Origin: an uncultured delta proteobacterium
GTDB taxonomy: Bacteria; Desulfobacterota; RBG-13-43-22
Assembly (NCBI GenBank): GCA_963843145.1
Contig: CAWJJC010000005.1
Coordinates: 128,001 to 192,000 of the forward strand
Length of the DNA: 64,000 bases
Direction of reading: 5' to 3'
In this document: positions 1,982 to 53,768 of the stretch, one piece after another
Position numbering within the stretch: the stretch's first letter is position 1
Layout of the letters: each line of letters opens with the position of its first letter
Position numbers and translations under genes: made by a program
Notes under the pieces: model-generated
Database searches by the model: none
Seen by the model: only the letters and a program-made list of their open reading frames with translations
Told to the model about the DNA's origin: nothing

Positions 1982-2157
1982 CCCCCCATACCCGGGGTGG
2001 GCACCCCGAAGCATGTAAATATCTGGTATACCGGTCATTGCGAGGAGCGAAGAGACAAAGCAATCCCCCAGTTGGCTTACAACGTTCCCCAAGTTCAATC
2101 GGGGATTGCTTCGCTTCGCTCGCAATGACCGGGGATGCGGGGTCATTTTCGTACTAA
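1982..2157 (+). mobile_element. Shell repeat copy A with GTCATTGCGAG...CTCGCAATGAC palindromic cargo
   Basis: Left end CCCCCATACCCGGGGTGGGCACCCCGAAGCATGTAAAT, right end ATTTTCGTACTAA; same ends recur more than 10 times in the window. Confidence 0.75.
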
Positions 2158-2184
2158 ACGGCCATAACCTGATTGGAGAAAGAA

Positions 2185-2631
2185 ATGAAAATCAACAAGA
2201 TGGATCATATCTGCGTCGCCGTCAAAGACCTGAACGCGGCCAAGAAGGACTGGGAACTCCTTTTGGGGAAATCCGGCCCGGACGACGCCTATGTGGATGA
2301 ACGGGAAAAGATCCGGGTGGCCCGTTACTGGGTCGGAGAGATCGGCTTTGAACTCATGGAATCCACCACCCCCGACGGCGAGGTGGCCAAGTTCATCGAA
2401 AAACGGGGCGAAGGGGTCATGCTCATCAGCTTCAACGTGAACAATACCCGCCAGGCGGTAGAAGACCTCAAAGGAAAAGGCTTCCCTTTTATCCCGGATT
2501 CCAGAGGAGAAATCGCCCGTCCCTTTCGGGACTGCGAGTTCGCCTTTATCCAGCCCAAGAAACTCAACGGGGTGCTGACCGAGATCATCGACTACAGGCG
2601 GGACGAACTAGAACCAAAAGATAAGCCTTAA
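2185..2631 (+). CDS. VOC-family protein, methylmalonyl-CoA epimerase-like
   Basis: DHICVAVKDL, FELMEST..GEVAKFIEKRGEG, AFIQPKKLNGVLTE. RBS GGAG. Confidence 0.8.
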   Translation: MKINKMDHICVAVKDLNAAKKDWELLLGKSGPDDAYVDEREKIRVARYWVGEIGFELMESTTPDGEVAKFIEKRGEGVMLISFNVNNTRQAVEDLKGKGFPFIPDSRGEIARPFRDCEFAFIQPKKLNGVLTEIIDYRRDELEPKDKP

Positions 2632-2784
2632 AATTTATAACTGAAATAATTCTTGGCAAGGTTGGCCTGGCCTGATAAGTACCATAATTCACAGATACCC
2701 TGAACTTGTAGTTTTTTATTGACTTTTTACATTTTTTTTAATATACAACTTTAACTTTATCAAAAAAACAATTTTGGAGGCCCA

Positions 2785-3408
2785 ATGACCAAGAAAATCC
2801 TAAGCCTGCTATTACTTCCCCTGTTGCTCCTCATGTTACCGGCGACCGGTTGCCAATATTGGGACAATTGGACTAACTCCGGCGGAAGCTCCAGTTCCAA
2901 TTCCGGGACCAGTTCCACGAGCCAGGCGGAACAACCGCACGGGCAGGATACGGTAAATTTAATGGAAAGAACGCCCTTCAATGGCAAGGATCTCGATCCC
3001 GCCTTCTGGAGTAAAATGGAGGCCTACTGCAAGGCCGGGCCGACCAAACTGATCCTGGCCGACCTGAATGCAGTCCCGAATCAAATGACCCGGGCCGGAT
3101 TTCCCGGATTCTGGAAGGCGCAACTCTATGCCCTGGCCACCACCTACGCGGGCATGAACTGGTCCCCTTCTGTCATTGATCTCCGGGATTTGTATCAACA
3201 GCGTGGTGATATAAACGCCTGGTGGTCCCGGTATATGGGCGCCGTCTTGCAACTTATGCAGAAGGCCCCGCAGACCACGGCGCTCATCATTGTCAACGAC
3301 GGCCCGGACCGGGTGGGCTTCCGTCTCGGCCCCGCCATGCAGAGGCAAATGGGATCCGTTGCCGGCCGCGTTCAGCTCGGGTCCACCGTCCCCGAGTCTC
3401 AGTATTAA
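2785..3408 (+). CDS. Hypothetical lipoprotein
   Basis: RBS GGAGG, signal peptide with lipobox-like ATGC, Ser/Gly-rich linker. Stop codon coincides with the left end of shell repeat B. Confidence 0.65.
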   Translation: MTKKILSLLLLPLLLLMLPATGCQYWDNWTNSGGSSSSNSGTSSTSQAEQPHGQDTVNLMERTPFNGKDLDPAFWSKMEAYCKAGPTKLILADLNAVPNQMTRAGFPGFWKAQLYALATTYAGMNWSPSVIDLRDLYQQRGDINAWWSRYMGAVLQLMQKAPQTTALIIVNDGPDRVGFRLGPAMQRQMGSVAGRVQLGSTVPESQY

Positions 3409-3573
3409 ACCCTCATACCCGGGGTGGGCATCCCGAAGCATGAAAATAATAGGGCCGATACAACTAATTAACCCCTTGATATTAATAAATCAATAATCAA
3501 TTGATTCAATTAATCAATTATGATTATTGATTATTGGCCCTTTTGCAGGTCATGGAGTCTATTTTCGTATTAA
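3406..3573 (+). mobile_element. Shell repeat copy B with AT-rich AATCAAT/ATTGATT heptamer cargo
   Basis: Same left and right ends as copy A. Cargo is homologous to the reverse copy at 37067-37223. Confidence 0.75.
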
Positions 3574-3658
3574 CGCAACAACCTCCCCCCAACCCAAATC
3601 GTCTCCGTATCCTATAATCGCCCGGCGCTGAGCGCTTCGCACCGGGCGCCCGGCGCCT

Positions 3659-4528
3659 TCAAAGCGCCCGCATCCATTCCGGCCGTAATCCCACCTCCCC
3701 CTTGACGGCTTTGGCGATCAACCTTAAGGCCGGTTCTTTGCCTTCAGGATAACGGACTTTTATGGGCAGGTAATTGGAGGCGTGGTTGGAATAAAACAGC
3801 CCCCTAGAAAGCTGGGTGGCCGAAACCATCTCTCCCAGCTCCAGCAGGAATTCCTGCACCTCTAAAGGCTGAAATCCGCCTTCCGCGTATTCCCGACCCA
3901 GTTCGGTATTCGGTAAAACCATGACTGTCAGGGCGCCCACAAAGTCGGGGTCCATTTCGGTCAGCAACCGGCCCGTTTCCCGGGCATGTTCCCGGGACAA
4001 GGCCTTTCCGCCGATGCCCAGCAGCACCGTGACCGAGAGCCGGATCCCGGCCGCCTTGATCCTTTTCCCCTGTTGGATCAGGTTTTCAGCCGAAGTCCCT
4101 TTGCAGATCTTTTTCAACAGTTCCGGATGTCCGGTCTCCACCCCCAGATAAACTATCCCCAACCCCAGTTCCTTCAGTTGCCGCAACTCCTCGTCCGTCT
4201 TCATTTTGATGCTCTTGGCATTGGCATAAAGGCCAATCCGCCGAACCCAGGGGAGGTGCTCCCGGATCTGTTCCAGGATCCAAACCAATCGCTTCTGGGG
4301 GATGATCAGGGCGTCCCCGTCCATCAGAAAAACCCGGTCCTGCCGCCGGCAATACCGGGAGGCGAAGAGGATATCCTTCAGGATCCGTTCATCCTTTTTG
4401 ATCCGGAACCGCTTATCCTTGTAAGTCCCGCAAAAGGAACATTTATTATGCGAACAGCCGACCGTCACCTGCAACAGGATGCTGTCGGCTTCGCTGGGGG
4501 GACGAATCACCATCCCCTCGTATTCCAT
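3659..4528 (-). CDS. Radical SAM protein
   Basis: MEYEGMVIRPPSEA...GCSHNKCSFC (CX3CX2C), YLGVETG, SNHASNYLP. Start chosen at the ATG after GGAAG. Confidence 0.88.
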   Translation of the reverse strand: MEYEGMVIRPPSEADSILLQVTVGCSHNKCSFCGTYKDKRFRIKKDERILKDILFASRYCRRQDRVFLMDGDALIIPQKRLVWILEQIREHLPWVRRIGLYANAKSIKMKTDEELRQLKELGLGIVYLGVETGHPELLKKICKGTSAENLIQQGKRIKAAGIRLSVTVLLGIGGKALSREHARETGRLLTEMDPDFVGALTVMVLPNTELGREYAEGGFQPLEVQEFLLELGEMVSATQLSRGLFYSNHASNYLPIKVRYPEGKEPALRLIAKAVKGEVGLRPEWMRAL

Positions 4529-4828
4529 CTCGTCTTCCTCGATCGAATCGTTCATGACGGTACTCCTAACCGCGTACGATATATCCGCTGATTCATAATT
4601 TACTATGATTCTGATAAAAGGTAAACCCTTAACAATTTTTGTCAAAACTTGACATTTATTGGCAAAGATTTTCCAGCAGTAGTCCTCGAAATCCCGACTG
4701 GCGTTTTAATCTATCGTTTTAATTATGTTTATTATTTATAAGCTTTGGCCTTCATTTTGCTTCTCATTAAGTCGATACATATAATTAAACTATACAGGAT
4801 CAGAAACCAATTGACGAAAATACTGAAA

Positions 4829-5311
4829 ATGAGAACACCTTGCATCAGACCGCCCAGAACCCTAATCCTTCGAAGAAGGAAGGCCTTTACCCTGATCGAA
4901 ACGTTAATAGTGGTGGCCATCATCGGCATAGTAAGCGCTATCGCCATCCCCCAAATGGGAATACTCATGAATAGGTATCGTCTGGATGGGGCTACCCGAT
5001 TGATCTGGGCCGATCTACAAAATGCCAGAATGACGGCCATTAAAGAAAACAGATCCATAAGGGCCCAATTTGACTTTCTGGCCCACACCTATAGTGTTAC
5101 CCGGGTAGATACAGGGGAAACTATCCTGACCAGAAATCTTAACGGAGAGTACCCTGCTGTTTCGGCCCAAGAAACCAATGGGGGGACCATTACCTTTACC
5201 TCCACAGGGGTGACTTTGAACAATCTCAATACCTCGGTCATCACCACTGGACCATCGGGAACTAAAACCATTGACATAAAAGAGACAGGAAGGATTTCGA
5301 TCATTTCATGA
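4829..5311 (+). CDS. GspH/FimT-family minor pilin
   Basis: Class III signal AFTLIETLIVVAIIGI, LQNARMTAIKENR, C-terminal TGRI. Confidence 0.85.
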   Translation: MRTPCIRPPRTLILRRRKAFTLIETLIVVAIIGIVSAIAIPQMGILMNRYRLDGATRLIWADLQNARMTAIKENRSIRAQFDFLAHTYSVTRVDTGETILTRNLNGEYPAVSAQETNGGTITFTSTGVTLNNLNTSVITTGPSGTKTIDIKETGRISIIS

Positions 5312-5757
5312 TGGATCAATCTAAAAACCCCAAAGGATTTACACTGATAGAGTTCATGGTGGCCCTGCTTATCCTGGTAGTCGGGGTCCTTAGTTTGGGA
5401 GGCCTGCAAGTTACGGCTATAAAAGGAAACCTGGCCTCAAAAAACTTAACCACGGCGAATATCCTGGCCGAGAGAAAAGTGGAAGAGTTTAAGACCACCG
5501 CTACCTCTCACGACGGTTTTGTCAAGCCCGTCCTGGCCCTGATGAACAACCATGCGGATCCCAATAATCCCTTAAACTCAGACGGACTGGGGGGGAATGG
5601 GAATACCGGGAGGATCTTCAACCGCGCCTGGACCATAGAAACCTATGCCGGATCTGCAAATATGAAAAGAATAATCGTAACCGTTACCTGGCCGGAAGGG
5701 GGACGAACACGTTCCACCTCTATGGACACGGTAATTGCCGACCCGAACCCGGTATAA
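5308..5757 (+). CDS. pilV: PilV-like minor pilin
   Basis: GFTLIEFMVALLILVVGVLSLGGLQ, FNRAWTI, KRIIVTVTW. Confidence 0.82.
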   Translation: MMDQSKNPKGFTLIEFMVALLILVVGVLSLGGLQVTAIKGNLASKNLTTANILAERKVEEFKTTATSHDGFVKPVLALMNNHADPNNPLNSDGLGGNGNTGRIFNRAWTIETYAGSANMKRIIVTVTWPEGGRTRSTSMDTVIADPNPV

Positions 5758-5767
5758 TGGCCACGCC

Positions 5768-6322
5768 ATGAAAACGTCCAGAGGATTTACAATAACTGAA
5801 CTGCTGCTCACCCTGGGACTTACCGTTTTGTTCCTGGCCACGGTCGGCGGCGTCTTCATCAACTCCAATAAGAGCCGAGCCTCCCAAAACTTATCCATAG
5901 ATATGCAGCAAAATGCCAGATCCGTGGTTGAACTTGCCCTGCGGGAGATCAGAAGTCTGAAAACCATTTCCTGTATGGAGAATACCAGCAATCCCTGTTC
6001 CGGAAGCGATAAAATCTCTTTTACCTCGGTCACAGACACGGACACGCGTATATTCTCCTGGACTTCAGACCCCAATAGTCCAAATTCCCTTGTCTTACAA
6101 TTCAGCAAGGCCGTGGCGGGAACCCCTGCCAGGCAGGAATTGGCCAAAAACATTAGCCTTTTTTCACTCACACCTTTCGATGGGAATAACAACCCCACGA
6201 GCAATCTCGCCTCAATCAAAAGGATAGATGTAAAAATCACGGCCCGATCGGCCACTGTGGATCCCATGAGTCAGGTCTATAAATACTACCCCACCACCGA
6301 AACAGTAAGCATTAGGAATTAA
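5768..6322 (+). CDS. pilW: PilW-like minor pilin
   Basis: GFTITELLL...MQQNARSVVELALREIR; C-terminal V.IRN. Confidence 0.8.
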   Translation: MKTSRGFTITELLLTLGLTVLFLATVGGVFINSNKSRASQNLSIDMQQNARSVVELALREIRSLKTISCMENTSNPCSGSDKISFTSVTDTDTRIFSWTSDPNSPNSLVLQFSKAVAGTPARQELAKNISLFSLTPFDGNNNPTSNLASIKRIDVKITARSATVDPMSQVYKYYPTTETVSIRN

Positions 6323-6334
6323 AGGAGGTTCCAG

Positions 6335-7522: not shown

Positions 7523-7647
7523 ATTCAATCAGGACCCATTCGCCTGAACTCGAGGGACTCCCGGAGTTTTATTGTTCCGGGAAAAGGAAAAACCCCCGCC
7601 ACTTATTTCATATTTAATTCCCCGGATTGTTTTGCCGATAACTTAAT

Positions 7648-7852
7648 TAAGCCCCCATGCCCGGGGCGGGCATTTGCGAAGCATGAAAATAGACTTTAAA
7701 CGAGTCGAGTCATCTCGTCATTCCGGACAAGCGAAGCGCGATCCGGAATCCAGGCCGCGGCTAAGCTTCATAGGATCTGGATGCCGGATCGAGTCCGGCA
7801 TGACGGCAAAAACAAATGCCCAAGGTGACGCCTGACTTTATTTTCATACTAA
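7648..7852 (+). mobile_element. Shell repeat copy C with GTCATTCCGG...CCGGCATGAC cargo
   Basis: CCCCCATGCCCGGGGCGGGCA..GAAGCATGAAAATA ... TATTTTCATACTAA. Confidence 0.75.
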
Positions 7853-7871
7853 GTACCTATAGAGGGGACCT

Positions 7872-13585: not shown

Positions 13586-13824
13586 GAAAAATACACCGTT
13601 CTCCAGAAAAATATACTAGGTTTACCCTATTTATCATATCCACCATCCCCTGTAAAGTGGATATAACTTAAGGTTTTCGAGGGCCAAGTCCTTTATCGTG
13701 GCGGGGACTCGCGATGTCTGACAATAAAAAGCCTAACTTGTTGACATTAATAGTTAATAATTAACAATCTATTTTTCATTATCAACTATTAATAAAGGCT
13801 TTGTGGTGACAAGTTCTATTTTCA

Positions 13825-14054
13825 CCCCCATGCCAGGGGCGGGCACCCCGAAGCATGAAAATTTATGTTTATTCAACTTATTAGATCGTCATTCCGGCGA
13901 ACGCCCTTCGGCTAGCTCAGGGCCATGAGCATTGTCGAATGGCCGGAATCCAGGGCAGTGAAGGTCCTGGGTCACCTGGATCCCGGATCGAGTCCGGGAT
14001 GACGGCAAAAACAAAACGCCTAAAAAATGGTGATCGATTCTATTTTCGTACTAA
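13825..14054 (+). mobile_element. Shell repeat copy D
   Basis: Canonical ends; cargo almost identical to copy E. Confidence 0.8.
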
Positions 14055-14090
14055 GATTTAGGGCCGCCCACCCGGCCCTGAGGTATATTT

Positions 14091-14465
14091 ATGGTCACAG
14101 CCCTGCTGGTTGAAGATAACGAATTCTTTCGCAAATCCTTCAAAAAAATACTGAACGACCGGTTTCCCCTTTTAATAGTTATCGAGGCCGGCACCTGCCG
14201 GGAAGGCCTTCAAATGTGCCGAGAAAGCTTCCCGGAACTGATCTTCGCCGATATCAATCTTCCGGACGGCAACGGTTTGGAATTATCCCGAACCCTACGG
14301 TTACAATACCCCCAAACCACTATTTTGATTTTGACCAGCTACGACCTGCCGGAATACCGTCAAGCCGCCGTGGCCAACGGGGCCAATTATTTTTTCCCTA
14401 AGGATTCCAATCACGAAGTGATCCTTTCCATGGTGGAATCAGAAATTTGTAGAAATATAAATTAA
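14091..14465 (+). CDS. Single-domain response regulator
   Basis: LLVEDN, DINLPDGNG, ILTSYD, GANYFFPK. RBS GAGG. Confidence 0.88.
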   Translation: MVTALLVEDNEFFRKSFKKILNDRFPLLIVIEAGTCREGLQMCRESFPELIFADINLPDGNGLELSRTLRLQYPQTTILILTSYDLPEYRQAAVANGANYFFPKDSNHEVILSMVESEICRNIN

Positions 14466-14597
14466 TTATAATATGCCTCCATTTGAGAGGCAAAAAATAC
14501 TAAGAGTCCCTATATAAAATACTAGATTTACCCCATTTTATAATTTGGTAATAACTATTATTAATGATGTTGAATTATTAACGATAAAAACCCGTAC

Positions 14598-14831
14598 TAA
14601 ACCCCATTGGCCAAGGCGGAAACCCCGGGGCATGAAAATTTATGTTTATTCAATTTGTTAGGTCGTCATTCCGGCGAACGCCCTTCGGCTAGCTCAGGGC
14701 CATGAGCATTGTCGAATGGCCGGAATCCAGGGCAGTGAAGGTCCTGGGTCACCTGGATCCCGGATCGAGTCCGGGATGACGGCAAAAACAAAACGCCTAA
14801 AAAGCGGTAATCAATTCTATTTTCGTATTAA
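14598..14831 (+). mobile_element. Shell repeat copy E
   Basis: About 200-bp near-identical direct repeat of copy D. Confidence 0.8.
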
Positions 14832-14850
14832 CGAATAAGGAAAGCTGTTG

Positions 14851-15541
14851 ATGCTGAAGGCAACGCTCAAATGGATAGTGTTCCTGGCCGTTGGACTTGT
14901 GGCTACTCTGGCGAGCGCTGACCAGGACCCGGTTCTCAAGACTCAGAAGGACTGGCAAAGCTACGCCATGGGGGTGGAGGCGGGGACAAACCTCAAACGC
15001 CTGGGCATCGATTTCGATTTAGACATCGTTATCAGGGGCATGAAGGATGCGTATACGGGCAATAAGCTCCTGTTGTCTGAAAAGAACATCAAAACATCCT
15101 TGCACCTCATTGCCTCCGAACTAATGCGAAAAAAAGACGCCGCCCGAATAGAGGCGGGACTGGATAACAAGAAAAAGGGGGAAGCATTTCTGGCCGAGAA
15201 TAAAGCCCAGGCCGACGTGGTGACGCTTCCCAGCGGCTTGCAGTACAAGATCCTCAAAGCCGGGGACGGCAAGAAGCCGACCGAGGCGGACACCGTTGAG
15301 TGCCGCTATCGAGGGACCCACATCGACGGGACCGTGTTTGAAACCTCCGGGGAGAAGCCAGGCTACCTTCACGGTCGCAAAAGTCATTCCCGGATGGAGG
15401 GAGGCCCTCAAACTCATGTCCGTGGGCGCCAAGTGGCGGCTCTTCATTCCCTCCCAGCTCGCCTACGGACAGCAGGGATCGGGCCGGATCGGCCCCTACG
15501 AGACGATCATCTTTGAAATTGAGCTGGTCGATATCAAATGA
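14851..15541 (+). CDS. FKBP-type (Mip/FkpA-like) peptidyl-prolyl isomerase (+1 frameshift near 15361)
   Basis: Signal peptide, SYAMG, GEAFLAENK, LPSGLQYKILKAGDG, then VIPGWREALKLM..IPSQLAYG..IFEIEL in the +1 frame. Confidence 0.85.
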
Positions 15542-20868: not shown

Positions 20869-21190
20869 TTTAGTATGTAAATAACCACCGCATGTTATGC
20901 GACCACTTTCGCTCCTTCTATGGCATGTATCCAATATCTTTATGCCGTCGGATTCCGGCCTCGAGTACCGGGGGTTCAATGCGAAAATAAATTGAGTGAA
21001 CAAGTGATCATTCTTAGGGGCGTCGCCCTGGCCATTCCGGTCTGTATTTGACACCATGCCTTATGCCCTTGATTGCAATGAAGTGAATCCCGTTCAGCCG
21101 GAAGTGGGCGACCGGACCCAAACTGAATAAGCATAAATTTTGACATCCTTCGGCAGGTGCTTGACCCTGGACATATGTATGGGAATTTAA
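20869..21190 (-). mobile_element. Two tandem degenerate shell repeats
   Basis: Reversed right ends TTAGTATGTAAATAA and ATGCGAAAATAA; reversed left-end-like CATATGTCCAGGGTCAAGCACCTGCCGAAGGATGTCAAAATTTATGCTTATTC. Confidence 0.5.
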
Positions 21191-25633: not shown

Positions 25634-25672
25634 AATCGTTACTCGTTTCTAACACCTTAACAGTTGAGATCC

Positions 25673-25811
25673 TTAAATCCGAAATTCGAAGCACGAAATC
25701 CGAAACAAGCACGAAGGTCCAAAATCCGAATGACCAAAACAAAAACGTTTCGAATTTTGAAATTTGGTCATTTGAATTTGTTTCGGATTTCGATATTCGG
25801 ATTTCGAATTT
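25673..25811. repeat. Heptamer inverted-repeat element, second copy
   Basis: AAATCCGAAATTCGAAGCACGAAATCCGAAACAAGCACGAAGGTCC is shared with 24714. Confidence 0.75.
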
Positions 25812-25868
25812 GAACTAAAAATTCAAATATTTTTTGGTTAGCTTTATCTAACCCTGATACCCGGAAGA

Positions 25869-32027: not shown

Positions 32028-32275
32028 GAGGCTGGGATTAACTTTCAGTATGTAAATTCAAAATGCAAAATTTAGTACGAAAAGAAGATCGAATACCCCT
32101 TTCGGGTTTTTGTTTTCGTAGTCATCCCGGACTCGATCCGGGATCCAGGAAGCTCGAAAAATCCCGGATTCCGTCTCTCTCCTGATTATGCCAAAAATAA
32201 GCCCAAATTGCTACCGATCAACTTATTCCTGGGGGCAGATGTCGGTCCTCCCGATTAGTCCTGTTCACCGAAGCC

Positions 32276-34270: not shown

Positions 34271-34312
34271 TTAAATCTCCTGCCTGCAACAGCCACAAGG
34301 CTGACTTCTTTT

Positions 34313-34590
34313 TAACCCTCAGGCCCCCGAAGGACACCCCGAAACAGGTAAACGCCTTTGGCCAAGGGCCGGTCGCCCTAGGCCTTCGGTCAGGCTGTCA
34401 TTCTGAGCTCTTCACCAGCTTGTCAGCCTGAGTGAAACGAAGGATCTCGGTTCCCAGCTCAGCTTAAACTCCGCAAAGGATCAGCTCACGGGCTGCCTGA
34501 GGGATCCTTCAGTCGTTTCGCTCCTTCAGGAGGTCTATTTTCGTATTAGCCCCCCATGCTTGGGGCTGGGCACTCATGCCGCATGAAGAT
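34313..34590 (+). mobile_element. Shell repeat copy H followed by a further left end (tandem junction)
   Basis: ...TATTTTCGTATTAG|CCCCCCATGCTTGGGGCTGGGCAC..GCATGAAGAT. Confidence 0.65.
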
Positions 34591-35689: not shown

Positions 35690-35747
35690 AGGCGACTAAA
35701 TAAACATCGAACTTCGAACATCGAACGCCCAACCTTGAATGAAAATA

Positions 35748-35898
35748 TGACGCTTCGCCCTTTTGGGTGGGTATCCCCAGATCTGGTATGGCCGTCTGGT
35801 CTCGGCAAAAGGGTTTCCCACCTTGCTTTACAGGTTCGGAACCCGGCCCAAATGTTTCTAAATCTTCACGGAGGCAGGGCCAGCCCGAGGAAGCGTCA
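35748..35898 (-). ncRNA. Candidate structured RNA motif, copy 1 (unidentified)
   Basis: Closed by TGACGCTTC/GAAGCGTCA; several stems; homologous to 35901-36068. Confidence 0.35.
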
Positions 35899-35900
35899 AA

Positions 35901-36068
35901 AGCCTCTGAGTTTGGGCCTGCTGCAAATAAAATTACTAATTTCGGCCCGGGGTCGAACTCCGGGGACCCTTTGGAAAACCCTTTCGCCGAGATCAGACGG
36001 CCACGAAGGCCTGAATATTCAGTCTAATGCTAACAGATATCGTGGCCCCCCACCCAGAAATGGCGAAA
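35901..36068 (+). ncRNA. Candidate structured RNA motif, copy 2 (unidentified)
   Basis: Shares AAACCCTTTYGCCGAGAYCAGACGGCCA and CCCACCCA..GGCGAA with copy 1. Confidence 0.35.
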
Positions 36069-36167
36069 ATCGAAAATATCACCAATAAGCCCACGATTGT
36101 CAACACAAAAAGCGTTGCTTTGGCCGGTTGATCTGTTGTAAACTTAATCCAATTGAAAGGGGAAAGA

Positions 36168-36967: not shown

Positions 36968-36970
36968 AGG

Positions 36971-37223
36971 TAATACGAAAATAGGGCACAGGGTATAAGG
37001 TTCAAGGTATAAGGTTTGGAGAATACCATTTTAATGCTTCGTGGGTGCCCCGCGGGGCATGTGGGTTTAGTATGTAAATAAGCCTCTATGACCTGCAATA
37101 AGGCCAATAATCAATTGTCAATGATCAATTGATTATTGATTATTGATATCCTGCGGTTAAACAGTTGTCTCGCCCCTTTTATTTTTATGCTACGAGGGTA
37201 CCCACCAGGGGCCTAGTGTTTAA
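36971..37223 (-). mobile_element. Two tandem reversed shell repeats (36971-37069 and 37067-37223)
   Basis: Both ends present twice. The second cargo matches copy B; the first is a TATAAGG-type heptamer cargo. Confidence 0.72.
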
Positions 37224-37250
37224 CTCGGGGCTAAAATACCATTTTTCCCC

Positions 37251-39158: not shown

Positions 39159-40025
39159 GTGGGTAAAATATTAGTCACCGGCGCCACCGGCACCATCGGC
39201 AGTCAGTTGGTGCGGCGGCTCAAAGAAAAGAACCTGGAGGTCATTGCCGGGGTCAGCAGCCTTTCCAAAGCCGGACGCTTCTCCAAACAGGGCATCGATA
39301 CGACCATCCTCAACTTTGCCCAACCCGATTCTCTGGAACCGGCCTTCGAGGGGGTCGATCGTCTATTTCTTTTGCTGCCCCTGGCGGAACCCATGGAGGA
39401 TTGGGGCTTGCGGGCCATAGCCGGCGCTCAGAAAGCCGGGGTCCAATTCATCCTTCGCTCATCGTGCTTGGGGGCCGATTCGCCAGCCGAATTTGAACTG
39501 GGTCAGGTGCATGGCCGAATCGATCAGGCGCTGATCGATAGCGGCCTGGCCTACACGATCGTTCGCCCCAATTCGTTCATGCAGAACTACCTAAATTTTT
39601 TCGGAGGGATGATCAAGGACCAACAGTCCATCTTCCTGCCCCAGGGCCAGGGCCGGATCAGCCTGATCGACGTCCGAGACATCGCCGCCGTGGATACTGA
39701 AATCCTGACCGCTCCCGAAAACCATAGGCAGAAGGCCTATGACCTGACCGGTCCGGAGGCGTTAACCAACGAGGAAATCGCCCGGATCCTCGCCCGGGTC
39801 CTGGGGAAACCAATCACCTCTGTGGATATCGACGAATTAACCGCCCGCCAGGCCATGGCCCGGAGGGGGATGCCGGAATGGAATATTCGCCTGTTGGAAA
39901 GCCTGAACCGTCGTATCAAGCTGGGGATGACGGCCGAAGTCACTAACTGGGTCCGGATGATTGCCGGGAGACAGCCGACAACCTTTGAGCAATTTGCCTG
40001 GGACCATGCGGATGCCTGGAAGTAA
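39159..40025 (+). CDS. NmrA-like NAD(P)-binding oxidoreductase
   Basis: ILVTGATGTIG, RPNSFMQN, IDVRDIA, YDLTGPEAL. RBS AAGGAG. Confidence 0.9.
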   Translation: MGKILVTGATGTIGSQLVRRLKEKNLEVIAGVSSLSKAGRFSKQGIDTTILNFAQPDSLEPAFEGVDRLFLLLPLAEPMEDWGLRAIAGAQKAGVQFILRSSCLGADSPAEFELGQVHGRIDQALIDSGLAYTIVRPNSFMQNYLNFFGGMIKDQQSIFLPQGQGRISLIDVRDIAAVDTEILTAPENHRQKAYDLTGPEALTNEEIARILARVLGKPITSVDIDELTARQAMARRGMPEWNIRLLESLNRRIKLGMTAEVTNWVRMIAGRQPTTFEQFAWDHADAWK

Positions 40026-41806: not shown

Positions 41807-41931
41807 TCCTCCCCTTGACAGATTCTTTTTGGTGCTTAATTTAAAGATCAGTTAATTGAACCCGCCCAAAACAGGGGGCAACGAGCCGGGTTACTTTTAG
41901 GGTAAACCCGGCTTTTTATTTGGGGATAACC

Positions 41932-43011
41932 ATGATAGCAACGAAAACCTCGACTTTGAAACACGGTTCGGCCCTGGAGAGCCTTATCTCTGAGGATGCT
42001 TTTTCGCGATCGGACGAAACCGATGATCGGGAATTTTACTCCCGGGACCGCTTCGTCTCCCACCTGGATTCCTTAGCCCTGGCCACCGTTGAGAAAATCA
42101 TTGGGGACCTGGTGGTGGAAAAGCAGCCGATCATTTTAGACCTCATGTCCGGTTGGGATTCCCATCTCCCGGAAGGGTTCCAGCCTGCCCGTCTGGTCGG
42201 TCTGGGCTTAAATGAAAATGAACTTCAAATGAACAAAGCCCTGACGGAATACCGCCTTCATGACCTGAACCGGGACCCGATTCTCCCTTTTCCGGATCAG
42301 ACCTTTGATGTGGTGCTCAATACCTTGTCGGTTGATTATTTGACCAACCCACTGCGGATCTTTGAAGAGGTGAACCGGGTGCTGAAACCCGGGGGATTAT
42401 TTCTGGTTATTTTTTCCAATCGGATGTTCCCCGAGAAGGCGGTCAGGATCTGGCGGGAGGCCAACGAAGAAGAGCGAGTTTTTCTGATCCAGGATTTTTT
42501 TAAGGAAGCTTCACATTTTGAAAAACCGGGGCTTTTTGTTTCTAAAGGAAAACCCCGGCCCCAAGACGACAAATACGCTCACTTGGGCATCGCCAGCGAT
42601 CCCATTTACGCAGTCTTCGCCGACAAGGTCGGCGGGGATTCAAATCGAAAAAAAAGGAGAATCACCATGTCGACCGTCAACCGTAAGCTCAGTCCGGAAG
42701 AGTTAAGAGAAATAGAAAAGGAAGTTAAAAATACCCTTTGCTGCCCTTACTGCGGGGAAAAAATGAAAAAATGGGCCGTTCCCGACAATCCCTTTTCTCA
42801 GACCTGGGACAATGATTTTATGTACATCTGCTTCAACGACGCCTGCCCCTATTATGTCCGGGGCTGGGATCACATGGCCCGAGAAGTGCAAAGAAGTGTT
42901 TCCTATCGACTCATGTACAACCCCGAGCGGGATTATTGCCTGCCCATTCCCGTTCCGACGCCCTTTGCCTTAAAGGAGGGAATTGTCGAGCAGGACGAAT
43001 GCGGCAAATAA
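41932..43011 (+). CDS. Class I SAM methyltransferase fused to a C-terminal Cys-rich (zinc-ribbon-like) domain
   Basis: DETDDREFY..RFVSHLD, LDLMSGWDSHLP, SVDYL, FSNRMFP; tail CCPYCG..YICFNDACPYY. Confidence 0.82.
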   Translation: MIATKTSTLKHGSALESLISEDAFSRSDETDDREFYSRDRFVSHLDSLALATVEKIIGDLVVEKQPIILDLMSGWDSHLPEGFQPARLVGLGLNENELQMNKALTEYRLHDLNRDPILPFPDQTFDVVLNTLSVDYLTNPLRIFEEVNRVLKPGGLFLVIFSNRMFPEKAVRIWREANEEERVFLIQDFFKEASHFEKPGLFVSKGKPRPQDDKYAHLGIASDPIYAVFADKVGGDSNRKKRRITMSTVNRKLSPEELREIEKEVKNTLCCPYCGEKMKKWAVPDNPFSQTWDNDFMYICFNDACPYYVRGWDHMAREVQRSVSYRLMYNPERDYCLPIPVPTPFALKEGIVEQDECGK

Positions 43012-44338: not shown

Positions 44339-44534
44339 TTAGTATGCAAATAAGAATCCACCACCACTTTTTAGACCTTTTCCCTGAGTAGTCATACCGG
44401 ACTTGATCCGGTATCCAGGCCCTCCGGAGCTTATCCGAGGCTGGATTCCGGATCACGCTTCGCTTGTCCGGAGCGACGAATTTTGGTCAAGCCTAATTTC
44501 CATGCACCGGGATGCCCGCCCCAGGCATGGGGGT
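44339..44534 (-). mobile_element. Shell repeat copy J (reversed)
   Basis: Reverse left end CCCCCATGCCTGGGGCGGGCATCCCGGTGCATGGAAAT; cargo related to copy C. Confidence 0.72.
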
Positions 44535-45013
44535 ATAATTCGAAAATAAAGCGAAAACTTGGCATATTTTCAGCCGAGTGTTTAAGATTCCCGAGATCAA
44601 ATTCGAAGATCAGCGCTCTGGTCCTTTGATGAACTCAAGACTTTCCGGAATTTAATCATTCAAAGAACAGGCCGACTAACGACTCCCCAAGGAAAATTGA
44701 CGCTGGCCATGAGTGCCAATAAGGCCGTCCAAAAGGATTTCCTTGGCTGGAGAGGTGTTTCCTGAAAATGGGCTTTCTGGTCAATTACAGGAGGAACTGG
44801 TCTTCTTCGGTCAGCCCAAAGAGAATCCCAAATAACTTTAAAGTTTTTCTTTGTGAGATCAGATGTTCCCTTCGCTTTTGATAAGTATATTTTCTTGTTT
44901 CCCATTTTATCGCTGGATTACGGTGTAAACAAAAGTTCCGCAGAGCAGTTTACTTGAACAGGGTGTATAGTCTGTTCCCGATACATGCATAGGTCTCAGG
45001 GCAGGAGAACAGC

Positions 45014-47927: not shown

Positions 47928-47939
47928 CTTACCTATCCT
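47917..47939. promoter_or_regulatory. Perfect dyad, candidate operator
   Basis: AGGATAGGTAA-C-TTACCTATCCT; related ATAGG-N6-CCTAT at 48009-48024. Confidence 0.45.
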
Positions 47940-48472
47940 AATTTGAATAAATTGCCTATCGCAAATTCATTAATTTCCCTATATACTTTCCCGGCGTTTT
48001 TGATGATGATAGGTCATCTCCTATGGAAGAGGATCTTGTTAATCGGGCTGACGGCTTAGTTGTCGGGTGGCAAACGGACTTTTTCAATTAACAAGACCTA
48101 AAATCGGCTTGCCGCATCTATCGTCACTCCTGGCTAAAGCCGGAGTCCAGAAAAACTCTGGGTTCCGGATCAAGCCCGTCATGACATCGCAGGGAGGCCA
48201 TTGATATCCATCGGCTTCTGGCCGGATAGCTGATTAAACATTGTGAATTTATAAATATTTTTCCTGAGTTGTCAGGCTATTATGTTCTCTATTGCTGATT
48301 TTCTCTACAGATCGGATATAGGGAAACAAGCGGAGATTTAAGTGAAAGACTGCTCGTAAAGGCCTGAATAAAAGATCAACTCCGGTAACAAATTTAAATT
48401 AATTCACAATTATCTCGGAGTTATGCTATAGAACACCTGTTTAGGTTAAGGTTTTTTAATGTGGTTTGAAAG

Positions 48473-49780
48473 TTGAAAAGATTGACCAAAGAGGCCGTTT
48501 TGAAAGATCGAATCTCCGGATATTTCGACCCTCAGTGGGAAACCCGACCTATTGAGGGAAAACGACCCGTAATAGAAAAACGCCTTCGTCAGACCCTTCT
48601 ATCTGCTTATGCCCAGGCCCCGGCCATAAAACATAAGTTCGATCTGGTGGGATTGCGTCCTGAAGAGATCCGGACGGAAAAAGATCTGGAACGGATCCCT
48701 ATTACTAAAAAAGTCGAACTGGTTGGCATCCAGAAAGCAAACCCTCCATTCGGCGGCTTGTTGACCCTTGCTCCCAACCAACTGAAACGAATTTTTGTTT
48801 CCCCCGGACCAATCTTTGATCCCATGAAAACAGGAGCGGCCGATTCCCGTTGCTGCAAGTGTCTCTTTGCCGCCGGGATCCGGCCGGGCGATCTGGTCCA
48901 GAATACTTTCCTTTATCATTTCACTCCCTTTGGATTATATTTTGATGATGCCCTGGTGGAGATGGGCTGCACCGTGATCCCGGCCGGGGTGGGCAACACC
49001 GAACTTCAGGCTCAGGTCATGCAGGCCCTGAAGGTGAACGGCTATATCGGGACCCCCAGTTTCCTGAAAGCCGTCCTGGACAAAGTCGAGGAATTGGGAT
49101 TTGATCCCCGGGAGGATCTGGATTTAAAGGTGGCGGTGGTGGGGGCCGAAATGCTGGCTGAATCCCTCCGGTCCGAGATTGAATCCCGGATCGACCTGAA
49201 AGTCCGCCAAGCCTACGGCACGGCCGACGTGGGCCTGATCGGCCATGAATGCCCGGAGAAGAATGGGTATCACCTTTTCGATATGGAAATGTTCTTTGAG
49301 GTGGTGGACCCCTCCACCGGACGACAAACCCCGCCCGGGGAAATCGGAGAGCTGGTGGTCACCAGCTTTAACCCGGTCTATCCCCTGATCCGCTTCGGTA
49401 CCGGAGATTTGACCGCCAGCGATGATTCCCGCTGCCCCTGCGGCAGGACAGCCCCCCGCCTGAAAGGGCTTTATGGCCGGGTGGATCAAGTCACCAAAGT
49501 CCGGGCCATGTTCATCCATCCCAGCCAGGTGGATCAGGTCATTGGTCGGAATCCTGAAGTATCCCGGGGCCGAATAATCGTGACCCAGCAAAACCATCAG
49601 GATGAAATGAACTTCCAGATTGAACTGAAGGACGATTTGATAGAAGCGGAGCCGCTGCTTAAAAAAATGCGGGAAGATATCCGGGAAATCATGCGGCTCC
49701 GGGGGGAAGTAATGATTGTCCCTCGAGGAGCCATCCCGGCCGACGCCAAAAAGATAGAAGACCGGCGAAACTGGGATTGA
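48473..49780 (+). CDS. Phenylacetate-CoA ligase-like (PaaK family) protein
   Basis: PITKK, SPGPIFDP, IGTPSFL, QAYGTADVG, RFGTGDL, GRVD. Confidence 0.82.
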   Translation: MKRLTKEAVLKDRISGYFDPQWETRPIEGKRPVIEKRLRQTLLSAYAQAPAIKHKFDLVGLRPEEIRTEKDLERIPITKKVELVGIQKANPPFGGLLTLAPNQLKRIFVSPGPIFDPMKTGAADSRCCKCLFAAGIRPGDLVQNTFLYHFTPFGLYFDDALVEMGCTVIPAGVGNTELQAQVMQALKVNGYIGTPSFLKAVLDKVEELGFDPREDLDLKVAVVGAEMLAESLRSEIESRIDLKVRQAYGTADVGLIGHECPEKNGYHLFDMEMFFEVVDPSTGRQTPPGEIGELVVTSFNPVYPLIRFGTGDLTASDDSRCPCGRTAPRLKGLYGRVDQVTKVRAMFIHPSQVDQVIGRNPEVSRGRIIVTQQNHQDEMNFQIELKDDLIEAEPLLKKMREDIREIMRLRGEVMIVPRGAIPADAKKIEDRRNWD

Positions 49781-49783
49781 GGG

Positions 49784-50114
49784 TTAATATAAAAAAAAGG
49801 CGTTGCGGGTTGCAGGTTCAAAAAAACCGATACTGGATACTGGATACTGGATAAAAGATGGTCATTCCTTTACTTCCCCTCCCCCACGTGGGAGGGGACT
49901 GAGGGGTGGGGAGACTTGGAATTTTCAAGTAGGGGCGGCGACCCCGCCGCCCAACCCGGGGCCGGATTTAGCCACCGTCGCCGTAAGCTTACCTTGGACG
50001 TGCAGGGAACTTTATCCCTCACCAAGCCCGCCGGCGGGGTCGCCGGCCCTACGATAAACGAAAACTTGGGATAATTTCATGATTCGCGGGTGCTCGCCCC
50101 GGGCATAGGGGTTT
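49784..50114 (-). mobile_element. Shell repeat copy K (reversed) with GTAG-type REP pair cargo
   Basis: Reverse left end CCCCTATGCCCGGGGCGAGCACCCGCGAATCATGAAAT; GTAGGGGCGGCGACCCCGCCGCCC...GCCGGCGGGGTCGCCGGCCCTAC. Confidence 0.7.
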
Positions 50115-50145
50115 ATTATCCAAATCAAGGGAAGGAGATAAAGTC

Positions 50146-51303
50146 ATGCAATATAGTCTGACCGAAGAACAGCTCATGCTGAAGGATATGATCGGCCGAC
50201 TGGCCAAGGAAAAGATCGCCCCCGGAGCGGCGGAACGGGACGAAAAAGGAGAATTCGCCGCGGACATGGTGGAACTGCTTCGGGAAAACGGCCTTTTCGC
50301 CGCCGATTTTCCCAAGGAGTACGGCGGGGAGGAAATGGGACTCCTCTCCCTGTGCCTGATTATCGAGGAAGTAGCCAAGGCCTGCGCCTCCACCTCGCTC
50401 ATCCTGGCCGTCCATGAACTGGGCACCATGCCCATCTTTTTGGCCGGGAACAAGGAACAGAAGGATAAATACTTCCCCAAATTGGCGACGGGTGAATACC
50501 TGGCGGCCTTTGGTCTGACCGAACCGAATGCCGGCTCCGATGTGTCCGGCCTGACCACCAAGGCCGTGCGGGACGGAAATTATTATGTCCTCGACGGGAG
50601 AAAAATTTTTATTTCCCACGGGGACGTGGCTCAGGTGGTTTGTATAGCCGCCAAGACCAATCTGGAAGTTCCCGGCCACAAGGGAATCAGCATGTTTATC
50701 GTGGAAAAAGGTACCCCGGGCTTTACCATCGGCAAGCATGAGAATAAAATGGGGATCCGGGGCTCCTCCACGGTGGAGCTCATCCTGGAGGAGGTGCGGG
50801 TGCCCAAGGAAAACCTGCTCGGACAGGAAGGAATGGGCTTTAACATCCTGATGAAAACCCTGGATTTCACCCGCATCCCGGTAGCCGCCCAGGCCCTGGG
50901 CATCGCTCAAGGGGCCTTGGACTACGCGATCAACTACACCAAGGAACGCGTCCAGTTTGGGAAACCTGTTTTTGCCAATCAGGGCATTCAATGGATGATC
51001 GCCGAAATGGCCGCCAAGCTGGAGGCGGCCCGCCAACTCACCTACAAGACCGCCGCGCTCTACCAGACCTTTCCCAAAAACTTAGACCGGATGACGGCCG
51101 AAGCCGTTCGCTATTCGGCCATGTGCAAGATGTTGGCCGCCGATACGGCCATGAGTGTGACCACCGATTGCGTCCAGTTGTTGGGCGGCTACGGCTTTAT
51201 CAAGGAATATCCGGTGGAACGGATGATGCGGGACGCCAAGATCACCCAAATCTACGAAGGCACCTCGCAGGTGCAAAAGATGGTGATCGCCTCCACCCTC
51301 TAA
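50146..51303 (+). CDS. Acyl-CoA dehydrogenase
   Basis: FGLTEPNAGSD, KMGIRGS, RVQFGK, LGGYG, QIYEGT. Confidence 0.94.
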   Translation: MQYSLTEEQLMLKDMIGRLAKEKIAPGAAERDEKGEFAADMVELLRENGLFAADFPKEYGGEEMGLLSLCLIIEEVAKACASTSLILAVHELGTMPIFLAGNKEQKDKYFPKLATGEYLAAFGLTEPNAGSDVSGLTTKAVRDGNYYVLDGRKIFISHGDVAQVVCIAAKTNLEVPGHKGISMFIVEKGTPGFTIGKHENKMGIRGSSTVELILEEVRVPKENLLGQEGMGFNILMKTLDFTRIPVAAQALGIAQGALDYAINYTKERVQFGKPVFANQGIQWMIAEMAAKLEAARQLTYKTAALYQTFPKNLDRMTAEAVRYSAMCKMLAADTAMSVTTDCVQLLGGYGFIKEYPVERMMRDAKITQIYEGTSQVQKMVIASTL

Positions 51304-51578
51304 GCGCAAAGCGCGGAGCGTAGGGCGCGGAGCGTTTTTTAAAATGGGCTCAAAATAGAAACAACGCCCTGAAGCGTCATTCCCGCGACGCTTCTGAGCG
51401 GGAATCCAGGATTTTCTTAAGGAACATTGGATCCCCGACAAAGACATTCGGGGATGACGAGAATTTACTTTTTTATGAATTCTTGCTTATCATTCCGGCT
51501 TTGTTTTTTGCACTCTGCGCCTCGCGCCCTGCACTCCGAGCTCCGCGCCTTGCGCCTTCCGCCTCACAGATTTTAGAT

Positions 51579-52463
51579 ATGGAAATGATCCTGCAAATCA
51601 TTGTCAGCGGGCTGGCCACGGGCGGCGTTTACGGATTGATCGGCCTGGGCTTTGTGCTGATCTACAAGGCCACCAGTGTTTTGAACCTGGCCATGGGCGA
51701 TTTTATGACCCTGGGGGCCTTTATCTGCCTGACCGTGCTGGAAAAATTTCAGGCCCCCTTTTATGTGGCCTTTTTGGTTACCCTGCTGTGCGCCTTTATC
51801 ATTGGGATAACCGTGGAACGACTTATTCTCCGACCGCTGATCGGGGAACCGGTCATTTCCGTTATCATGGTCACCATCGGTTTGGGGGTGTTTTTGCGGG
51901 GGATCATGTACATGGTCTGGACCCCTGTCTTTCGCAGTTTTCCGGAGATCTTCCCCCCCCAACCACTTAACCTGGGATTTGCCATTGTCCCCTCCGGTCT
52001 GCTCTGGGGGTTTATCTTTGCCGTCATCGGGACCTTTGTCTTTTTGTTCATTTTTAAATTTTCCCGGACCGGGGTGGCCATGCGAGCCACAGCTAATGAC
52101 CAGCAGGCCGCCCAATCCATGGGCATCAGCGTCCGCTGGGTCTTTGCCCTGGCCTGGAGTTTCGGCGCCGTCGCTTCGGTAATCGGCGGAATCGTCGTCG
52201 GGAACCTCTCCGGTATCAGCGTCTACATGGGGGACATCGGGCTCAAGGTGCTGGCCGTCATCATTTTAGGCGGACTGGACAGCATCGGCGGCGCTATCCT
52301 GGGGGGATTTATTATCGGGGTCCTGGAAAACCTGGCCGGGTTCTATATCGATCCCCTGGTCGGCGGCGGCATAAAAAACGTGGCTCCTTTCTTTATCCTG
52401 GTGATCATCCTGATGATCCGCCCTTACGGGCTGTTCGGCAAAAAGCTGATTGAGCGGGTTTAG
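51579..52463 (+). CDS. Branched-chain amino acid-type ABC permease (LivH-like)
   Basis: YGLIGLGFVLIYKAT..NLAMG, GVAMRA, ILGGLDS, RPYGLFG. Confidence 0.9.
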   Translation: MEMILQIIVSGLATGGVYGLIGLGFVLIYKATSVLNLAMGDFMTLGAFICLTVLEKFQAPFYVAFLVTLLCAFIIGITVERLILRPLIGEPVISVIMVTIGLGVFLRGIMYMVWTPVFRSFPEIFPPQPLNLGFAIVPSGLLWGFIFAVIGTFVFLFIFKFSRTGVAMRATANDQQAAQSMGISVRWVFALAWSFGAVASVIGGIVVGNLSGISVYMGDIGLKVLAVIILGGLDSIGGAILGGFIIGVLENLAGFYIDPLVGGGIKNVAPFFILVIILMIRPYGLFGKKLIERV

Positions 52464-52468
52464 AGCTG

Positions 52469-53512
52469 ATGCGCTGCGGTGATTTTAAAGAATCGTATAT
52501 TCAGGACGACGCTATTTTTCAGTCCGGACCCGTCAAGTTTTTTCTGGCCCTTTTTTTCGTTTTCCTCCTGATCTTTCCCTTCGTGGCCAATGCCTATATG
52601 CTTTACCTGGCCAACATGATCGGGTTTGCTGTCATCGGGGCCGTGGGTTTGAACCTGCTCACCGGCTTTACCGGACAAATATCGCTGGGCCACTCGGCCT
52701 TTATCGGAGTAGGGGCCTATACCTCAGCCATCCTGATCACCCGCTTAGGCTTCTCTTTCTGGCTATCGCTGCCCTTCGCCGGCCTGGTCTCAGCCCTGGC
52801 CGGTCTGATTATCGGACTCCCGTCCCTAAGGGTCAAAGGCCTGTATCTGTGCATCGCCACTTTGGCTTCCCAGTTCATTCTGGAATTTATTTTTGTGCAC
52901 TGGGAATCCCTGACCAAGGGGATCGCCGGTATTCACCTCCCGGCGCCTCAGATCGGCGGTTTTGTTTTTTCCACGGAAAGAAAGTTTTATTGGATTACCC
53001 TGTTTTTTGTCATCATCGCCGTGGCCTATGCCCGGAACCTGGTTCGGTCCCGCATGGGCCGGGCCTTTGTGGCCATCCGGGACCGGGACTTATCGGCCGA
53101 AATTATCGGCATCGATCTACTACGTTATAAATTGAGCGCCTTCGCCATCAGTTCCTTCTACGCCGGTGTAGCCGGGGCCCTCTGGGTGAGTTTTCTGAAG
53201 GTGGTCACTCCGGAACATTTTCCCTTTATCCTCAGCATCCAGTTCCTGGCCATGGTCATCATTGGTGGTTTGGGCAGCATCCTGGGCTCGATCTTCGGCG
53301 CCGTATTCATGACCATTGTCCCCGAATTTTTGGGTTATATGGCCTCGGTGGTGAAAACGCTGGCTCCCGGGTATGATCAGTTATTCATTCCGATGAAAGA
53401 GGTGATTTTTGGGGGGCTGATCATCGTTTTCCTGATTTTTGAGCCTCATGGCCTGGCGGAAATATGGAACCGCGTTAAGAGCGTCTTCCGCCTTTGGCCG
53501 TTTTCGTATTAG
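52469..53512 (+). CDS. Branched-chain amino acid-type ABC permease (LivM-like)
   Basis: GLNLLTGFTGQISLGH, GRAFVAIRD, MVIIGGLGS. Confidence 0.9.
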   Translation: MRCGDFKESYIQDDAIFQSGPVKFFLALFFVFLLIFPFVANAYMLYLANMIGFAVIGAVGLNLLTGFTGQISLGHSAFIGVGAYTSAILITRLGFSFWLSLPFAGLVSALAGLIIGLPSLRVKGLYLCIATLASQFILEFIFVHWESLTKGIAGIHLPAPQIGGFVFSTERKFYWITLFFVIIAVAYARNLVRSRMGRAFVAIRDRDLSAEIIGIDLLRYKLSAFAISSFYAGVAGALWVSFLKVVTPEHFPFILSIQFLAMVIIGGLGSILGSIFGAVFMTIVPEFLGYMASVVKTLAPGYDQLFIPMKEVIFGGLIIVFLIFEPHGLAEIWNRVKSVFRLWPFSY

Positions 53513-53768
53513 ACCCGCATGCCCAGAGGTGGACACCCCGAATCATGAGAATATTCCAAGGTTTTGTTTTTCGTAGTGCCGGCGACCCCGCCGGCCGGCT
53601 GGGTGAGGGCTAAGGGTCCCTGCTCATCCGAGGTAAGGCCACAGCGAAGGTGGCCAAATCCGGGCACGGTTTGGGCAGGCAGGGATCGCCGCCCCTACGA
53701 AAGACCACTTCGCCATTCGATATTCGGTGTTCGATATTCGTTATTCGTATTCTTTATTTGTGGACTAA
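53510..53768 (+). mobile_element. Shell repeat copy L with GTAG-type REP cargo
   Basis: Starts at the livM stop (TTTTCGTATTAG|ACCCGCATGCCC...GAATCATGAGAAT); cargo homologous to copy K. Confidence 0.7.

Follow-up and report, generated by a model that had tools for sequence, protein, structure and literature searches.

A gene-less shell element with linked, asymmetric ends and varying palindromic cargo in a Desulfobacterota genome

In a 64,000-nt stretch of DNA from an uncultured delta proteobacterium (Desulfobacterota, RBG-13-43-22; assembly GCA_963843145.1, contig CAWJJC010000005.1, positions 128,001 to 192,000), hereafter the window, a first-pass annotation had described a miniature element, the shell, in which fixed and asymmetric ends enclose unrelated palindromic repeats as cargo. 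The locus thus raises the question of whether the shell is a mobile unit in its own right, which the annotation pictured as a non-autonomous element recombined at a TAA core, or a hotspot that other repeats target. We found that the left and right ends of the shell are linked and oriented throughout the 5.35-Mb source genome (G000), that whole left-cargo-right units multiply, and that they are present or absent at orthologous sites of close relatives. Positions without a contig label refer to the window.

Linked ends and their anatomy

The shell proved to be real by its counts. The right-end pattern matched 8 times in the window at up to one mismatch, against 0.03 matches expected, and the 16-nt core of the left end matched 7 times at up to two mismatches, against 0.08 expected. 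The full 38-nt left consensus of the first-pass annotation recovered only 2 window matches at up to three mismatches because the copies vary, especially in the hairpin. A left-end profile was built from 6 window copies and run genome-wide with nhmmer at a cut-off of E<0.01. In the window, it matched at or near all 11 main copies that had been listed and at one listed degenerate copy, the positions being 1977, 3403, 7646, 13820, 14595, 34309, 34544 and 53507 on the plus strand and 37072, 37212, 44539 and 50116 on the minus strand. Nine of these 12 matches had E<0.01, and those at 34309, 34544 and 37212 were weak (E 0.08-0.56). The degenerate copies fared unevenly, since only the one at 34544 has a (weakly) matched left end, that at 32072 consists of a minus-strand right end alone, and the stretch 20869-21190 holds only right-end-like pieces.

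Over the whole source genome, 113 left ends were detected with the profile and 117 right ends at up to one mismatch. When right ends with up to two mismatches were admitted, a right end on the same strand lay within about 335 nt downstream of 67 of the 113 left ends; on the opposite strand the corresponding count was 0/113, and upstream it was 4/113. The two ends are therefore not independent of each other but linked genome-wide and oriented. Complete units, of which 65 are listed in the source genome, measure 83-304 bp. A left end starts directly after 24 of the 117 right ends, which confirms the head-to-tail joining through a TAA-ended site that had been proposed, and 38 of the 117 are solitary and could be footprints.

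Written with its left flank, the consensus reads tATTTTCGTAYTAA (flank), then ACCCCCA-TGCCCG-GGG-CGGGCA-CCCCGAAGCATGAAAAT, cargo, and (TC)TATTTTCGTAYTAA. The left end spans about 45 nt and comprises ACCCCCA, a GC-rich hairpin and CCC(N)GAAGCATGAAAAT, and the right end, (TC)TATTTTCGTAYTAA, is a linear motif of 14-17 nt without a conserved hairpin, so that a hairpin is found only at the left. The left stem occurs in compensatory variants (TGCCCG/CGGGCA, TGCCCC/GGGGCA, TGCCGAC/GTCGGCA, TGCCTC/GAGGCA and TGCGCC/GGCGCA), and the best left-end stem averages 5.3 bp, compared with 4.0 bp in shuffled sequences, for the 133 left ends that could be anchored among 151 distinct ones. The inner inverted repeats of the first-pass annotation were seen directly, GCATGAAAATA and TATTTTCRTAY being complementary at 9-10 of 11 positions; of 54 elements folded for minimum energy, only 8 had them paired as a closing stem. 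Complementarity is lacking between the outer termini (ACCCCCATG... and ...CGTAYTAA), and the inverted repeat is internal.

The hairpin and the genomic setting bear on a reading of the shell as a functional RNA or regulatory module, for example an mRNA-stabilising or processing hairpin in operon spacers, that is kept by selection and mobile only secondarily. Such a role would agree with the position of the copies in short spacers adjoining genes, with the right end mostly 1-50 nt from the start of a downstream gene where that gene is co-oriented, and with a left-end core that is nearly invariant across phyla. However, the folding energies of the left ends were no better than those of shuffles (z -1.95 to +1.08), no Rfam family matched, orientation relative to the downstream gene was near even (36 same versus 29 opposite, on rough gene calls), and presence or absence changes rapidly between relatives. 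In Rfam 15 the whole window gave 0 matches at the gathering score, and 13700-14900 gave only chance-level matches. In a first test of the right end as a signal in 5' untranslated regions, random positions alone scored 37%. We consider this reading very unlikely.

The copies in the window are as follows. G002 is the closest relative of the source genome, with flanking genes about 90-96% identical; G001 is a further genome compared; REP denotes repetitive extragenic palindromic sequences.

1979..2157, plus strand: shell copy with a CGTC-tagged REP dimer of the GTCATTGCGAG type as cargo; left flank without TAA
3403..3573, plus strand: shell copy with an AT-rich heptamer palindrome as cargo; the TAA of the TATTAA upstream falls at the end of the upstream open frame
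7645..7852, plus strand: shell copy with a CGTC REP dimer of the GTCATTCCGG type; ortholog in G002; in G001 this site has a left end with other cargo
13819..14054, plus strand: shell copy of a 237-nt subfamily, absent in G002; abuts the truncated right end of an older heptamer element
14595..14831, plus strand: shell copy, also of the 237-nt subfamily, with a more diverged left end
32072..32085, minus strand: lone right end (TCTTTTCGTACTAA), no left end
34309..34549, plus strand: degenerate shell copy (left end E 0.56); a second left end starts immediately after its right end TATTTTCGTATTAG
34544..34589, plus strand: lone degenerate left end, head-to-tail with the 34309 copy
36970..37072, minus strand: short shell copy of 103 nt with heptamer-repeat cargo
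37067..37226 (approximate), minus strand: degenerate shell copy in tandem with the 36970 copy; AT-rich heptamer palindrome cargo
44339..44540, minus strand: shell copy with a CGTC REP dimer; right-end variant TATTTGCATACTAA on its own strand
49784..50118, minus strand: shell copy with a GTAG REP dimer and other hairpins; degenerate right end; in G002, 66 unrelated nt in its place
53500..53511, plus strand: natural target formed by the final codons of livM and its stop (TTTTCGTATTAG); coding stretch conserved in 11 family genomes
53512..53768, plus strand: shell copy directly after the livM stop, with a GTAG REP dimer and heptamers and a degenerate right end; in G002 a different shell at the same point

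Whole units, their target and their cargo

When four subfamilies of 4-8 copies each were aligned with their flanks, the conserved block began at the base that follows TAA and ended with the terminal TAA, and copies within each subfamily had unrelated flanks. Because conservation stops at the unit borders, it is the whole left-cargo-right unit that multiplies. Comparison with relatives revealed empty as well as filled alleles. The units at 13819-14054 and 49784-50118 are missing in G002, and two shells of G002 (C39:3490-3728 and C39:26113-26352) are missing in the source genome.

The site into which the units insert is best seen at the end of livM. The gene end CCGTTTTCGTATTA(A/G), or a near variant of it, is kept in 11 of the 11 family genomes in which the end of the gene was found. 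The stop is without a left end in four of them (G005, G015, G018 and G019) and is accompanied by a doubtful remnant only in G007, and in the six others (G000, G001, G002, G011, G012 and G013) a shell follows exactly after the stop, with differing hairpins and cargo. Two tandem units are present in G001 and G011, and the G011 locus equals that of G013 plus an extra 98-nt unit between the stop and the older unit. Since the livM end exists without a shell, the right-end look-alike on the left of the unit is a target and not a part of the element. Genome-wide, the flanks of the left ends resemble the right end as had been suspected: 46 of 113 are within three mismatches of its 14-mer (random rate 0.035%), 75 of 113 have TAA directly before the left end, and conservation rises towards the junction. 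Insertion is precise, exactly after the TA(A/G) of a TTTTCRTAYTAA-like site and in one orientation, and no target duplication is found beyond at most the TAA common to both junctions. As the right end regenerates the target, head-to-tail arrays result. These observations bear out the view of the shell as a non-autonomous element with oriented insertion at a specific, TAA-ended site.

The interiors are indeed unrelated across copies, the shell hosting at least six unrelated cargo families. Three types start with CGTCAT and form hairpin dimers, and one starts with CGTAGGG; these classes fit the CGTC- and GTAG-tagged REP super-families of Di Nocera et al. 2013 (PMC3733652). The remaining types are palindromes of 7-nt units. 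Of the GTCATTGCGAG-type matches in the source genome, 51 of 67 lacked both shell ends, as did 60 of the 186 AT-rich ones and 9 of 38 each among the GTCATTCCGG and GTAG types; the cargo thus consists of independent repeat families that also occur outside the shell. The AT-rich units are those that flank a gene of the 23S rRNA intervening sequence (IVS) protein family at C6:118947. Genes of this family gave 17 matches (12 over the cut-off) with heptamer inverted repeats; no shell end adjoins any of the 17, one left end lying 1165 nt from one of the genes. Cargo differs at three orthologous shells, namely at 7645 (G001 versus G000 and G002), at livM (G000 versus G002 versus G001) and between G011 and G013, and some exchange in place, by re-insertion or conversion, therefore takes place.

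This behaviour of the cargo is what would be expected if the shell were an immobile landing pad into which palindromes (REP dimers and heptamer elements) insert, its copies spreading by duplication or conversion only. The independence of the cargo families and the three differing orthologs speak for such a hotspot, as do the palindrome-framed REP dimers reported in two other bacteria (PMC3733652). Nevertheless, near-identical whole units stand at unrelated loci, close relatives differ in the presence of whole units, near-empty shells with at most 45 nt between the ends numbered only 3 in all the sequence examined, and a passive frame leaves the mimicry of the right end by the left flank unexplained. 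The hotspot alternative of the first-pass annotation hence retains its cargo side only, and as an account of the shell as a whole we judge it unlikely.

Several neighbouring observations concern repeats of the same kinds. A second frame, unlike the shell (CGCAAAAAGTCC...GGACTTTTTGCG), stands around the GTCATTGCGAG REP dimer in several of the 51 shell-less copies (for example C10:157010 and C27:446368 of the source genome) and also in the G002 insertions opposite positions 4570 and 42990. A 233-nt heptamer palindrome at 25634-25866, absent in G002, is preceded by GATCAT and followed by GATCAC where G002 has a single GATCAT, which suggests, from these edges, a 6-bp target duplication for this cargo-type heptamer element. 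At 35746-36072 the source genome has a GC-rich, hairpin-rich spacer of 327 nt, without Rfam match, and G002 has a complete shell with REP cargo instead, the two sharing the right boundary ...ATGCTAACAGA. The segments 39395-39578 (184 nt) and 41924-42437 (514 nt) are coding-like, present in the source genome and missing at clean joints in G002; these differences could reflect gene decay or the assemblies.

Distribution and means of mobilisation

A 30-nt left-end core was found at up to three mismatches in 8 of 41 genomes sampled (reversed control, 0), that is, in 3 of 3 of the genus and in 4 of 17 from elsewhere in the family, against 0 of 20 from other families of the phylum. In the GTDB species set the exact core of 21-22 nt was present at 63 loci, among them loci of metagenome-assembled genomes (MAGs) under the titles Acidobacteria or Terriglobia, of one MAG titled Thioalkalivibrio and of an unclassified MAG from the Black Sea (G042; 2.7 Mb). 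Carriers of the shell include G000-G003, G011-G013, G041 and G042, and the relatives G006, G008, G010, G014 and G020 are free of it. Exact 16-mers numbered 52 in G042, 5 in G041, 3 in G044, 1 in G043 and 0 in G045. Metagenomes contributed at least 121 loci with the left-end core, and a plasmid collection gave no left-end match. A spread so patchy and across phyla is indicative of horizontal transfer, of the element itself and presumably of its mover as well. In G042 the shell has its full anatomy and its own pair of target and right end, TATTTTCA[AG]A[GT]TAA versus TATTTTCGTAYTAA in the source genome, and the left-end core is unchanged.

The co-change of target and right end would come for free with recombination through a shared core. 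Strand bias is absent, 48 of 108 left ends lying on the G-rich strand and 42 of 108 with the local gene majority (GC skew is weak in this draft genome, which makes the orientation test a soft one), and this fits a double-strand reaction. On these two grounds, trans-acting site-specific integration is ranked first, ahead of the landing pad and of a single-strand reaction (below), which stand level, with the RNA module last. We thus tentatively favour, at a probability somewhat short of even, the reading of the shells as a family of gene-less, non-autonomous insertion elements that are moved in trans by site-specific integration through a shared core. A recombinase encoded elsewhere would excise the unit as a circle, the right-left junction of which would recombine in Campbell fashion with a genomic right-end look-alike, and the phylum-spanning left end would serve as the protein-binding arm. 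Nested insertion of REP-type repeats might alter the cargo, as might conversion between copies with the shared ends as homology. A bolder and rather improbable form of the proposal makes the shell the cis part of a so far unrecognised, phylum-spanning mobilisation system, in which a protein from elsewhere, possibly a housekeeping recombinase or nuclease, would bind the near-invariant GGCACCC(N)GAAGCATGAAAAT arm and the site would be selected through identity to, or pairing with, the right end that the element itself carries. Specificity would then reside in the DNA of the element and could be re-programmed, as the different pairs of target and right end in the two genomes suggest.

A number of results weigh against integration of this kind. 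As many as 67 of the 113 left flanks are four or more mismatches away from the 14-mer, so that the target rule is loose, and it is not universal, the Acidobacterial copies having no TAA-ended flank and lying inside a larger repeat. A model of pure whole-unit movement is not enough, given the cargo differences at the three orthologous shells. No transposase or recombinase adjoined a shell among the copies examined; at the 63 GTDB loci, none of 137 open reading frames within 900 nt of the left end (a scan that took in 137 of the 314 collected) matched a transposase, integrase or recombinase family, all being ordinary genes. Pairs of left and right ends more than 330 nt apart and enclosing a gene of their own were found neither in the source genome, where inner-repeat pairs 500-4000 nt apart were searched, nor for 67 left ends of GTDB loci and 21 of G042. 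Finally, a family scan of G042 revealed only two tyrosine recombinases, both of Xer size, and a dedicated integrase may accordingly not exist there, unless the MAG is incomplete.

Further searches for the site-specific mover or its traces were likewise negative. Inspection by eye of about 124 metagenome left ends showed no autonomous copy. The integron integrase model TIGR02249 had no match over the cut-off in G000, G042, G041, G002 or G011; this and the scarce pairing of the inner repeats led us to reject a folded site of the integron attC kind. A search with a dif-like pattern gave one plausible site (C27:81655), the far arm of which has no counterpart at the right-left junction. No contig bridging an empty site was obtained from four public DNA runs, which were shallow and gave contigs of 150-380 nt breaking at module borders.

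The IS110/IS1111 link that had been suggested for the shell was not supported. The source genome has 6 matches to PF01548 (IS110 family), and the genome-wide search with both ends for a long copy enclosing a transposase recovered only two, each with an IS110-family DEDD gene that sits between a left and a right end but interrupts the hairpin of the CGTC-REP cargo at GTCATTCC/GGACAAGCG. IS110 was discarded as the mobiliser because these two copies are nested in cargo and a second IS110 type has unrelated ends. The two insertions, at C20:4100-5700 and, truncated, at C6:86880-88000, occupy the same hairpin point of CGTC REP dimers, and to judge by this position the element looks like a REP-targeting insertion sequence.

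The other enzyme considered is an HUH tyrosine transposase acting in trans, of the IS200/IS605, RAYT (REP-associated tyrosine transposase) or IS91 kind, which would move the shell as a single strand by peel and paste, recognising the left hairpin as one end and cutting on the 3' side of the target and of the right end that resembles it. Several traits of the shell would suit it: asymmetric ends, a subterminal hairpin with compensatory stem variants, insertion without duplication 3' of a specific sequence mimicked by the right end, and a genome with 11 Y1_Tnp matches. The cargo also consists of REPs, a kind of repeat linked to such enzymes (PMC3733652). Against it stand the lack of a conserved hairpin at the right end and of a strand bias, and also the co-variation of target and right end between genomes without an evident matching change in the left end. 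Targets of IS200/IS605-type elements are usually 4-5 nt, and the look-alike of the shell, at 12-14 nt, is longer. Moreover, no shell end lies beside any of the 11 Y1_Tnp loci or within 3 kb of them, apart from one locus with a pair about 2 kb away, and 21 of 21 family genomes have Y1_Tnp irrespective of their shells. An IS200-like copy and an insertion sequence with a 330-aa Y1 protein were rejected as sources of the shell ends, since their own ends differ. The HUH explanation is thus also a doubtful one.

Two further observations concern Y1 genes. GTAG hairpins lie on both sides of the Y1 gene at C11:7318, a layout like that of REPINs (REP doublets forming hairpins) and their RAYT for some of the cargo and not for the shell. 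A multi-copy element encoding a 336-aa protein with a Y1 domain (C12:95484, C15:55410 and C15:62242) has short terminal inverted repeats (...ACGTTGGTT / AACCAACGT...), and one of its copies is bracketed by two IS110 copies. In G042, at loci L098-L115, runs of 7-nt units (AACCCTA / GACCCTA) stand directly before the right end in many shell copies, and the first bases of that right end resemble the last 7-nt unit of the preceding run.

Significance and comparison with known systems

Repeats of the REP and BIME (bacterial interspersed mosaic element) kinds fill bacterial spacers, and the movement of most of them is unexplained. The shell offers a sharp target, a conserved gene end at which empty and filled alleles occur naturally, and a left arm conserved from Desulfobacterota to Acidobacteria. 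With these it can be tested which enzyme mobilises repeats of this kind and whether the target is set by the right end of the element itself. For annotation, shells matter in that they provide or adjoin stop codons and that many start codons lie 1-50 nt after them.

The BIMEs of E. coli and the Neisseria mosaics bounded by dRS3 are modular intergenic mosaics of REP-type palindromes and other motifs. The shell shares this character, with REP-type palindromes and conserved short motifs in spacers, but those mosaics do not extend beyond a species or genus, and we know of no end-mimicking insertion target for them. A classical MITE (a miniature transposable element with inverted repeats) was rejected as a model, the shell having neither complementary outer termini nor a target duplication of fixed length.

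Derivatives of IS200/IS605 and the REPIN/RAYT systems resemble the shell in being gene-less, reliant on hairpins, free of duplication and inserted 3' of a short sequence like the far end. The former differ by similar hairpins at both ends, where the shell has one at the left only, and by an orientation bias with replication that the shell lacks; the latter consist of two inverted REPs and have a RAYT gene with the same REPs on its flanks, whereas the shell has no partner gene sharing its ends. Elements of the IS110/IS1111 type are alike in their asymmetric ends, precise target and absence of duplication, but the ends of the IS110 copies in the source genome are unrelated to those of the shell. 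Integrase-less cis-mobilisable elements accrete in tandem at att sites; they measure kilobases and occupy a single site in the chromosome. The direct core repeats flanking the units, the stacking at a regenerated site and the trans-acting enzyme, which is proposed for the shell, are common to both, and the shell differs in its units of 83-304 bp at about a hundred dispersed sites.

Literature searches with the end motifs as strings gave nothing relevant, and none of the REP, REPIN and MITE papers found dealt with this element (bioRxiv supplements lay outside the search). The closest printed relatives found are the structures of Di Nocera et al. 2013 (PMC3733652). For Anabaena and Halothiobacillus, that paper reports REP dimers framed by palindromes; no empty frame was seen in two of its three species, the association with the frame was not studied in detail, and the CGTC-tagged REPs are without a known transposase. 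Like the shell, those frames are conserved and flank GTAG- or CGTC-tagged REP dimers, and in its printed form the arm of the Halothiobacillus frame (GGGaaGCTT-GAAAaACC) appears to resemble the inner left arm of the shell (CCCGAAGCATGAAAAT). In contrast to those frames, the shell is asymmetric, has an extra hairpin on one side, carries at least six unrelated cargo families, inserts at an end-mimicking target, forms head-to-tail arrays and ranges across phyla. What is new relative to print is the asymmetric hairpin arm, the end-mimicking target with its natural empty and filled alleles, the accretion of arrays, the number of cargo families and the conservation across phyla.

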